Assembly (NCBI GenBank): GCA_000004695.1
Contig: CM000154.2
Coordinates: 4,736,001 to 4,800,000 of the forward strand
Source: Dictyostelium discoideum
Taxonomy: Eukaryota
Reading direction: 5' to 3'
Length of the DNA: 64,000 nt
The translations under genes and the position numbers were made by a program. Every line of letters begins with the position of its first letter. Positions within the stretch are counted from its first letter, which is position 1. Under the pieces are notes generated by a model, which saw only the letters and a list, made by a program, of their open reading frames with translations, had not been told where the DNA came from and did not search any database. Shown piece by piece: positions 60,078-62,579 of this stretch.

Positions 60078-60948
60078 TTTTTTTATTTATTTTTAAAATT
60101 AATATGAAACTTTTTATTGATAATTTTTAAGTTTTTGTTTAAAATTAAAATTAAAACAAACAGCAGGTGGATAAAAAAAAATAATTAAAAAATTAATAAT
60201 ATAACTAATTAATAAAAAAAAAAAAAAAAACTGAATTGGGGGTTCTATTTTTGTTAAACTTTTAATCTAACAAAACTCAAAAATATTGGTTAGAAAAAGC
60301 AAAACAAATTTAATTATTATTATCTTTGTCTTTGGTTATTATTTTTTTTTTATTTTACTATGTTGTGGAAAAAGGGTTATTTGTCCCATGCCAAAATTAA
60401 TATGGCTGCTGAAATTAATATGGTAATTTTGGCATGGGACTTATGTCTGCTAGAATTACCACATTAATTTCAGCAGCCATATTAATTTTGGCATGCACAG
60501 ACCAACTATTTTAGGCTGAAATTAATATGGCTGCCGAAATTAATATGGTAATTTTGGGCATAGAAAAATAAAAAAAAAACTCAAAGTCATTTAATTAATA
60601 ATCATCTCAAATATAAAAGAATTAAAAATAATAAAAAAAAACTCATGGGATTAATTACAGTAACAATACTGATGACAAGAATAATTATAAAATAAAAAAA
60701 AAAAAAAAATCTTTTTTTATCTTTTTATTTTTATTTCTTATTTATTTTCATGTGTTCAAAAAAAGTGGTGGTTTAAAACAATTTATTTAATTTTAAACTG
60801 TATGATTGTTTAAACAATTTCGAAATAAGTTTCTTTAAAGAAATTCTGTATTTCTTTTTTATTTTATTTTATTTCATTTCATTCTAATTTTTTTTTTTTT
60901 TTTTTTTTTATTTTTTTATTTTTTTTTTTTTTTTTGTATATTTAAGTT

Positions 60949-61100
60949 ATTTATTATTATTATTATTATTATTATTATTATTATTATTATTATTATTATT
61001 ATTATTATTATTATTATTATTATTATTATTATTATTATTATTATTATTATTATTATTATATTATTGTTATTATTATTATTATTATTATTATTATTAATAT
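60949..61100. repeat. (ATT)n microsatellite, about 50 units, inside the TIR element
   Basis: Direct reading. Confidence 0.9.
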
Positions 61101-61284
61101 TACTATTATTTAATTGACCGAAGGGATATCTTTTACTTTTTTTTTATATATAATTGTTCGAAACTTTAAAAAATAAAATAAAAAAAAAAAAATTAAAAAA
61201 AAAAATATAAAAAAAAAATTAAAAAAATTAAAAAGTATTTTTTTTTTTTATTTTTTTATTTTTCCACCCGAAGATGTCGCTTTT

Positions 61285-61686
61285 TTGGAATTTAAAGATG
61301 TTGAATTCAATCAAAGTGATGAATTTGGTGTATTATTTAACGAAGTTACTATTGATAAAAATGATTTGAAGTACAAAGTAAATGTTGAATTTAGAGAGGC
61401 GGAGACAAGTAAAAATAAATTGCAAAGGGATATCGAAATAACCAAAAGAAAATCAACAGATGACCTAGTTGAAAAAGCAATCGAGCACTCTACCACCGAA
61501 GTTAGATCAACACATGAAGCTGCAACAACTTCCAATAATGGTGGAATCACAACTCAATCAAACAAAAACAAAACGGGTAAAAAAAGAGCTAATCAATTAC
61601 AATCTGATGCTGATTTTACCAAAAGATTTTCAAACGAAACTTCATCTGTTAGTAACAAAAGAGAAAGTAGAAGAGTCAATAATTAA
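61285..61686 (+). other. Internal ORF of the TIR element, 133 codons, no in-frame ATG (begins at TTG); unassigned
   Basis: Only stop-free stretch inside the element. Composition is less AT-biased than its surroundings. Charged, K/E/T/S-rich product …EFKDVEFNQSDEFGVLFNEVTIDKNDLKYKVNVEFREAETSKNKLQRDIEITKRK…. No recognisable domain. Confidence 0.25.
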
Positions 61687-62579
61687 AATAAAAAATTAAA
61701 AAAAAAAAATTATTTTAATTTTTTTTTTTTTTTTTTTTTTTTATTTTTAATTTTTTTTTTTATTTTTAATTTTTTTTTTTGTGAGCCGTGGACATAAATG
61801 AATAATAAAAAAATATATCAACTAAAAAAAAAAGAAATGAAAATAAATTATAAAATTAATAATAAAAATAAAAAGATAAAAATAAATAAAAGATATAAAT
61901 AAAATAATATGAAAATTTTTTTTTTTTTTTTTTTTANTATTATAATTATTATAATAAAAATAATAATAATAATAATTTTAGTACTAAAATTTTGTTTATA
62001 TTTGAGATGATTATTAATTAAATGACTTTGACTTTTTTTTTTTTTCTATGCCAAAATTACCATATTAATTTTGGCAGCTATGTACATGCTGAAATTAATA
62101 TGGCTGCTGAAATTAATACGGTAATTTTGGCAGACATAAGTCCCATGCCAAAATTAATATAGCTGCTGAAATTAATATGGTAATTTTGGCATGGGACAGT
62201 TATTTTGTGTTTGTCAATTTACAAAAAAAAAAAAAATGTTTTGGTGTGTGTTTTTTTACCCCCTTAAATATTGACCAAAATTAATAAAATTTAATTTATT
62301 TTTATTGTACACCCAAATTCCACAAATACAATTTAATATTTACCTATACATTAATAAAACTTTTATAAGCTGGCCATTTTTCAAGCGAAAACGATGATGG
62401 AGGGGTAGAAAATGATAATTTACTTAAATATTCTATTCAAAATAAAGAGGATAGAGAAGAAGAAGAGTTGAGTGTGTATTATTTTTCATTTTACATAAAT
62501 ATGTTAAAGTATTGGCCATTAGAAAAAAAAAAAGTTAAAAAATGAAAAAAGTTAAAAAAAAAAAAAGTGAAAATATATT

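Follow-up and report, generated by a model that had tools for sequence, protein, structure and literature searches.

Thug-S was reportedly described by Glöckner and colleagues in 2001 as a family of DNA transposons in Dictyostelium discoideum. The gene model DDB_G0271154 is listed as a 'thugS element' (PMC12405889), and homology to Tdd-4 as well as to thugS was described for DDB_G0270824 (PMC3386910). Two small RNAs, miRNA_can_D3 and miRNA_can_D3*, were called thug-S-derived and mapped at the coordinates studied here, one of six such loci (PMC4894637). The Tdd-4 and Tdd-5 elements, which possess a zinc finger of the HHCC type, produce 5-bp target-site duplications (PMC2836005). IS3EU and GingerRoot elements produce 6-bp duplications, have no HHCC finger and end mostly in TA...TA, sometimes in TG...CA; 6 bp is also the commonest duplication length in IS481 (PMC10045372). 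We analyzed a window of 64,000 nucleotides of D. discoideum DNA (assembly GCA_000004695.1, contig CM000154.2, positions 4,736,001 to 4,800,000 of the forward strand), in which an earlier note made from the sequence alone had pointed out a 1.8-kb insert bounded by inverted repeats. Our analysis indicates that this insert is very probably a thug-S copy, and that this non-autonomous DNA transposon would have moved into the upstream region of one of two polyketide synthase paralogues after the gene had been duplicated.

The window contains a tandem segmental duplication, with copy A at 35734-47249 and copy B at 49174-62351, and a BLAST search of the window against itself gave 91-97% identity between them. 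On its minus strand, each copy carries one large polyketide synthase gene, and relatives of the large exon have Pfam domains for ketoacyl-synthase and acyltransferase. The left boundary of the duplication appeared more complex than that of a plain two-copy tandem, and repeats of 80-92% identity lie at and before its start (32988-36691 versus 34389-36007 and 49175-49943). At the right side, the self-BLAST aligned A 42748-47104 with B 56015-60382, and A 47098-47249 with B 62199-62351. This is the single break in A/B collinearity. About 1.8 kb is exclusive to copy B, and the corresponding site in copy A is contiguous, as the earlier note had reported (about 47100-47112). The breakpoints of the two collinear blocks overlap on GTTATT(T). 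Copy A reads ...AAAGG GTTATT TTGTGTTTG..., and copy B reads ...AAAGG GTTATT TGTCCCATGCC ... GGCATGGGACA GTTATT TTGTGTTTG..., in which 5'-TGTCCCATGCC...GGCATGGGACA-3' are the termini of the insert. The insertion is located 304 nt from the ATG of the copy-B polyketide synthase gene, on its upstream side.

Judged from the window alone, the duplication could be 6 bp long (GTTATT), in which case the element has T...A ends, or 7 bp long (GTTATTT). Other thug copies were retrieved from newer D. discoideum assemblies through proteins predicted from the open reading frame (ORF) of the element. All ten full copies of the family have a perfect 6-bp duplication and TGT...ACA ends. The 7-bp alternative with a terminal T agrees with the window, L001 and L002, and was rejected on its seventh base, which is mismatched in L007, L009, L010 and L011. 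No obvious consensus was seen among the ten target hexamers. These comparisons uphold the insertion site proposed in the earlier note and revise the limits of the element and the flanks. Position 60382 (T) and position 62198 (A) are element bases, which shifts the ends from 60383 and 62197 outward by one base each. The duplication is GTTATT and not TTATTT. The right flank had seemed to be offset by 'ag', and this offset vanishes because the A closes the element and the duplication begins with the G. The ends were described as perfect inverses, and they are, over 18 nt (TGTCCCATGCCAAAATTA / TAATTTTGGCATGGGACA).

Three lines of evidence place the insert in thug-S. The last ~93 amino acids encoded by its ORF are 95-96% identical to the protein cluster P0004, which includes DDB_G0271154 and DDB_G0270824. 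The left end of the element contains matches to the mir-7131 precursor (Rfam RF03716) on both strands, with scores well above the gathering score (Table 1); the right end reaches 25 bits, below the gathering score of 74. Finally, miRNA_can_D3 (UAUGGCUGCUGAAAUUAAUGUGG) and miRNA_can_D3* (AUUAAUUUCGGCAGCCAUAUU) match the window exactly at their published chromosome 5 positions, given an offset of 4,736,000 between window and chromosome that was taken from the S4 Table of the same study (PMC4894637). The insert is thus an annotated family copy and a published microRNA locus, and in that sense was already known; a comparison with catalogued termini (Tdd-4/DDT, thug), which the earlier note had proposed, ends in thug-S. 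The microRNA was placed 'in the intron of thug-S' (PMC4894637). This wording probably arises because the gene model is predicted to have its start within the terminal repeat and to remove an 853-nt 'intron' by splicing. Between Table 2 and the S4 Table of PMC4894637, the RNA named '-3p' (AUUAAUUUCGGCAGCCAUAUU) lies 5' of the RNA named '-5p' on the minus strand, so the arm names and the coordinates disagree at this locus.

Table 1. Positions of the thug-S insertion, its parts and related features (window coordinates unless a locus is named)
Feature	Position	Strand	Evidence or remark
thug-S element, 1817 bp, 5'-TGT...ACA-3'	60382-62198	+	self-BLAST breakpoints; AX4 chr5:4,796,382-4,798,198
Left target-site duplication copy, GTTATT	60376-60381	.	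window sequence; 6-bp length from 10/10 family copies
Right target-site duplication copy, GTTATT	62199-62204	.	window sequence and family copies
Empty site, copy A	47098-47103	.	single GTTATT without footprint (window sequence, self-BLAST)
Left terminal inverted repeat, ~240 nt	60382-60621	+	repeat families D7/D10, inverted pairs I5/I23; end alignment
Right terminal inverted repeat	61958-62198	+	28-nt deletion versus left arm; 59-nt tandem units at 62066-62191
Terminal 58-nt hairpin unit, left (17-nt stem, 24-nt loop)	60383-60440	+	folds as DNA at -18 kcal/mol (z = -7.35)
Terminal 58-nt hairpin unit, right	62140-62197	+	one mismatch versus left unit
Fold of units 1+2 (DNA)			-47 kcal/mol, z = -12.2
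Fold of units 2+3 (RNA)	60436-60575	-	-56.6 kcal/mol, z = -9.9
mir-7131 precursor hairpin (Rfam RF03716)	60399-60485	+	93.8 bits versus gathering score 74; model 1-84 of 84
mir-7131 match, opposite strand	60397-60483	-	93.1 bits versus gathering score 74
miRNA_can_D3	60459-60481	-	exact match; published chr5 4796459..4796481, minus (PMC4894637 S4 Table)
miRNA_can_D3*	60524-60544	-	exact match; published chr5 4796524..4796544, minus (PMC4894637 S4 Table)
Predicted exon 1 of DDB_G0290953 (MAAEINMVILAWDL-Y)	60402-60444	+	P0001 sequence matched to the window
(TTA)n microsatellite, 53.7 copies	60951-61110	+	Tandem Repeats Finder; length varies among copies (alignment gaps)
ATG-less open frame, ~140 codons plus stop	61261-61689	+	translation; remnant of the thug rve-type transposase C-terminus
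First coding exon, copy-B polyketide synthase gene	59676-60077	-	ORF list; ATG at 60077
Second thug fragment, internally deleted, left end truncated	47614-47797	-	98-99% identical to full-copy ends
~760-bp CACAG...CTGTG element	63848-64000; L003:4061-4817; L015:7149-7906; L004, three sites		

The terminal inverted repeats are ~240 nt long when the left end is aligned to the reverse complement of the right end, longer than the ~170 bp first estimated. The nested palindromic subunits noticed in them are real. Their DNA and RNA folds have z values of -7 to -12, and none of 200 shuffled sequences was as stable. Both repeats are assembled from ~58-nt units whose orientation alternates. The left one has three of them (60383-60440, 60441-60499 and 60508-60565) and an A-rich inner part, and neighbouring units pair with each other to form long hairpins. 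The outermost 58-nt unit has the same orientation at both ends of the element in all ten full copies: only the 17-nt stem is inverted and the 24-nt loop is not. This direct orientation is a family trait. Flip-flop inversion of the terminal hairpin was ruled out by the constancy of the orientation at both ends in these copies. A single hairpin unit in the opposite orientation was found, at 47615, and it belongs to an element that itself lies in reverse orientation.

The ORF of the insert provided a link to a transposase. A profile built from it and searched against 1.84 billion representative proteins led to P0028, a 469-residue protein of 'Dictyostelium cf. discoideum' that contains an rve integrase core (58.6 bits in Pfam versus a cut-off of 32.6), with relatives of up to 571 residues in D. 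discoideum strains (P0031, P0032 and P0033). The window ORF aligns to P0028 and to residues 421-563 of P0031 (E = 1e-36). A second type of thug-S ORF ('MVRQLL...') aligns with its N-terminal part to residues ~49-131 of P0031. By these alignments, the window ORF, which has no ATG, represents the ~140 codons at the C-terminal end of a DDE transposase of the rve type (retroviral-integrase-like). Such a protein is still encoded by longer elements with thug repeats in other Dictyostelium assemblies. At L014, the P0028 gene lies between the thug-type ends TGGCCCATTCCAAAATTACC... and ...GGTAATTTTGGCATGGGACA in an element of 2615 bp. At L015, in an AX-lineage assembly, an open frame of 405 codons comes after the thug left repeat and spans the rve/DDE core. 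The frame is split between PPEDV and AFLEF by a 758-bp foreign element, resumes with 99.5% identity to window 61274-61462 and is then truncated. Comparison with these longer relatives shows both thug-S types to be internal-deletion derivatives of a ~3.2-kb element with the same terminal repeats that encodes a ~570-residue transposase. The ~1.8-kb subtype, to which the window copy belongs, keeps the last ~140 transposase codons and has lost ~1.4 kb, corresponding to the first ~420 codons. In the ~1.97-kb subtype, ~70 N-terminal codons are fused with the final ~95. That the thug-S ORF derives from an rve transposase may be unreported.

The sister-species element (L014:4618-7232) does not have the outer 58-nt hairpin that is present in the window at 60382-60447 and 62133-62198. 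Its ends match positions inside thug-S, namely TGTCTGC... (window 60444) and ...GCAGACA (window 62136). In D. discoideum, thug has apparently acquired one more outer unit on either side, composed of T, the hairpin and TTA on the left, and of TAA, the hairpin and A on the right. The outer 58-nt unit makes up half of the mir-7131 precursor.

The window copy shares its ends with the longer rve-encoding elements L014 and L015 and has no transposase domain, as found for non-autonomous class II elements. The earlier note had called the element probably non-autonomous. This assignment is strengthened by the finding that no Pfam domain was detected in the window ORF, which corresponds to the C-terminal seventh to quarter of the transposases of its longer relatives. 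The body of the element also agrees with its first description as an (ATT)n array and an ORF without an ATG: a (TTA)n microsatellite is followed by a frame open from 61261 to 61686 with no in-frame ATG, and homopolymer tracts are present as well. The ORF matches the AX4 gene model DDB_G0290953 with 100% identity, and ~20 paralogous models exist in AX4 and newer assemblies. The model is predicted to take its ATG from the terminal repeat and to splice, with GT from 60445 and AG just before 61298, across the 853-nt 'intron', inside which the microsatellite is located.

One could suppose instead that the element is autonomous, or that DDB_G0290953 is a functional small protein and not a dead derivative. 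The 141-codon frame is indeed open in the window copy, L005 and L006, its C-terminal motifs (NQLQSDA-FFTKRFSNE and SNKR-RRVNN) are kept even in the divergent P0006, and the abundance of a 'thugS element' transcript is altered in a DNMT2 mutant (PMC12405889). In other copies, however, the frame has decayed: it is shifted in L007-L009, contains one stop in L002 and has many stops in L012. The model also has to borrow its ATG across a microsatellite-bearing 'intron', and the region corresponds to a transposase tail only. We therefore consider a functional or autonomous element very unlikely.

Sequence divergence provided insights into the order of events. The two host copies are 96.1% identical in the adjacent intergenic DNA and 94.5% identical in the large exon. 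The window thug-S is 99.5% identical to L006, L007 and L009, three 1.8-kb relatives at other loci, with 8-9 mismatches in about 1800 positions when substitutions alone are counted. An element that was present before the duplication is expected to differ from its relatives by at least the divergence between A and B. The observed divergence is only 0.5%, suggesting that the insertion took place after the duplication. Together with the perfect 6-bp duplication in B and the footprint-free hexamer in A, these identities (99.5% versus 94.5-96.1%) make it well supported, from sequence comparison, that the insertion postdates the duplication, the order that the earlier note had proposed. That note had also stated that the same element at the corresponding site of copy A would change this order. 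A second thug fragment, at 47614-47797, is off the orthologous site and leaves the order unchanged. It is located in the 1.9-kb spacer that separates the duplicates, 350 bp past the end of copy A, and contains repeat sequence only, with left-end positions 43-146 fused to the final 93 nt of the right end.

Could the element be older than the duplication and have been precisely lost from copy A later, by excision or by recombination between the 6-bp duplications? Sequence has evidently been exchanged between the copies beside the site. The 5' exons and introns (44971-46775 versus 58256-60077) are 99.2% identical between A and B, and this tract probably represents gene conversion ending close to the thug insertion site. 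Precise loss would, however, predict a divergence of at least 4-5% from the family copies, in contrast to the 0.5% observed, and copy A has exactly one GTTATT without a footprint. In a haploid genome in which both copies were filled, there would also be no empty template. Bacterial relatives of the IS3 and IS481 groups transpose by a copy-out-paste-in route in which the donor is not excised, which likewise counts against a loss by excision. Precise loss from copy A is thus highly improbable. An assembly artefact, in which a repeat was misplaced into copy B of the AX4 reference, is the least probable of all: the window does contain 103 N, including one inside the element (61938) and a 100-N gap (62580-62679), but the assembly GCA_054883475.1 (L005) has the same insertion, flanks and duplication with 99.5% identity over 5.2 kb, which excludes an error of the AX4 assembly, a perfect 6-bp duplication is not expected from a misplaced repeat, and small RNAs were mapped at these coordinates (PMC4894637).

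Several points weigh against our view of a thug-S element that transposed into copy B after the duplication. The nearby gene conversion blurs the dating. GCA_054883475.1 probably represents the same laboratory lineage, with thug sites at coordinates similar to those of the AX4 microRNA loci, and is therefore uninformative on the population frequency of the insertion. The AX-lineage data yielded no autonomous copy that is intact; the L015 frame is interrupted by 758 bp and truncated at its 3' side. Because transposition has not been observed either, the current mobility of the element is unproven. Two further loci were considered as views of the same site in other genomes. L013 (GCA_054859385.1) carries a related polyketide synthase cluster of 90-93% identity without a thug repeat; its intergenic DNA is too diverged to name an orthologous hexamer, and a low-stringency BLAST there returned AT-rich noise only. 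L004 (the P0007 locus) was rejected as the orthologous site, since it proved to be another thug copy, one with 1.4 kb inserted internally.

On the reading that thug-S inserted after the duplication, a simple mechanism can be envisaged. An rve-type transposase acting in trans would have moved the window copy. The transposase may bind the repeated ~58-nt units and cut at the TG...CA ends, and the cut ends would then be joined to phosphates of the target with a 6-bp stagger. According to published work on the family, DrnB and RbdB process RNAs transcribed through the repeats into mir-7131-type small RNAs, and the same processing would be expected at this locus. A Tdd-4/5-type copy is located 0.5 kb to the right of thug-S in the window. 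It is unlikely to have mobilized the insert: its duplication length is different, its ends are unrelated, and 165 bp of host DNA shared with copy A lie between the two.

The right end of the window contains additional repeated elements. Past the 100-N gap, 62680-63800 on the minus strand contains pieces of an integrase-type ORF with an HHCC finger (MHKGHIGRDATY...CDICQ) and DDE core pieces (CVDSF..., WHCDNGKEF... and QGMVERVN) that resemble the Tdd-4 part of DDB_G0270824. DDB_G0290955, the next gene identifier after that of the thug ORF, was called Tdd-5 (PMC3386910). In GCA_054883475.1, the sequence beyond the position equivalent to window 62579 is other DNA, with a Ricin-B-lectin gene. Either the Tdd element beyond this point is polymorphic or the gap joins non-adjacent sequence. 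A further repeated element end (CACAGCAAAGAAAAATGCACCTTTAAAGC...) lies at the very end of the window. It belongs to an element of ~760 bp with inverted CACAG...CTGTG ends, which was found twice inside thug copies, in the terminal hairpin of L003 and in the transposase frame of L015, where TC is duplicated at the junction. At L010:1286-1429, an element of ~140 bp consists of diverged thug repeat units only (TGTTCCATGCC...GGCATGGGGCA), with no clear target-site duplication seen there; miniature thug derivatives thus exist.

The insert as given is a re-discovery of an annotated transposon in the reference genome of a model organism, and can serve as a worked example. The pair of filled and empty paralogous sites, combined with the 0.5% divergence, indicates that thug-S moved more recently than the polyketide synthase duplication. 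With microRNA-producing hairpins upstream of one paralogue only, the locus could provide a natural experiment for regulatory divergence. The ends of thug and the length of its target-site duplication are now exact to the base. The link to an rve transposase would give thug a mechanism, a likely superfamily and a starting sequence for rebuilding an active transposase.

At the family level, the window copy is no different from thug-S, and it represents the ~1.8-kb subtype. The combination of TG...CA ends, a short duplication of fixed length and an rve core is a hallmark of integrase-type DDE transposition, and the thug core aligns to the catalytic domains of the integrases of foamy virus and human T-lymphotropic virus (HTLV). 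Tdd-4 and Tdd-5 (Ginger2/TDD) resemble thug in their long repeats (260-297 bp in Tdd-4/5), their rve-type DDE core and their host genome. They differ from it in several respects. The duplications of that group are 4-5 bp long (5 bp in Tdd-4/5), whereas those of thug are 6 bp in all ten copies. The HHCC domain (Pfam Integrase_H2C2) is present in the Tdd-4-type protein P0014 and was not detected in the longer thug relatives P0031, P0032 and P0033, in which Pfam found rve, rve_3 and rva_4 only. The DDE cores are only 27% identical, and the terminal sequences are unrelated.

The eukaryotic IS3EU, GingerRoot and IS481EU groups and the bacterial IS481 and IS3 may resemble thug more closely. Both the 6-bp duplication and the rve core without HHCC match. 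The TG...CA ends of thug are a minority type in GingerRoot and the rule in IS3 and IS481 (PMC10045372). Among the bacterial profiles, IS481 gave the best match to the thug transposase (75-84 bits), followed by IS3, and IS481 also scored above IS21 and IS30. The IS481 profile matches the Tdd-4-type core too (41 bits over a partial core), and thug cannot be placed from this ranking by itself. We hypothesize that thug belongs near IS481, IS3EU and GingerRoot. No literature linking thug with these groups was found in a search that did not cover the founding thug paper.

MicroRNA genes that derive from inverted-repeat elements are known elsewhere, such as those from MITEs (miniature transposable elements with inverted repeats) in plants and human miR-548 from MADE1. 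Thug is similar to them in that hairpins of its terminal repeats give rise to ~21-23-nt RNAs. It differs from the MITE and MADE1 type in that its hairpins form within one terminal repeat, between neighbouring ~58-nt units, and not between the two ends of a short element. Taken together, the comparisons lead us to a tentative proposal, to which we would give slightly less than even confidence. Thug, an orphan class since 2001 and to our knowledge without a recognized transposase, may be an integrase-type family that is distinct from Tdd-4/5 and has its closest hallmarks in IS481, IS3EU and GingerRoot; its ORF would be the tail of the transposase, and the outer 58-nt hairpins added in D. discoideum would have created the mir-7131 precursors.

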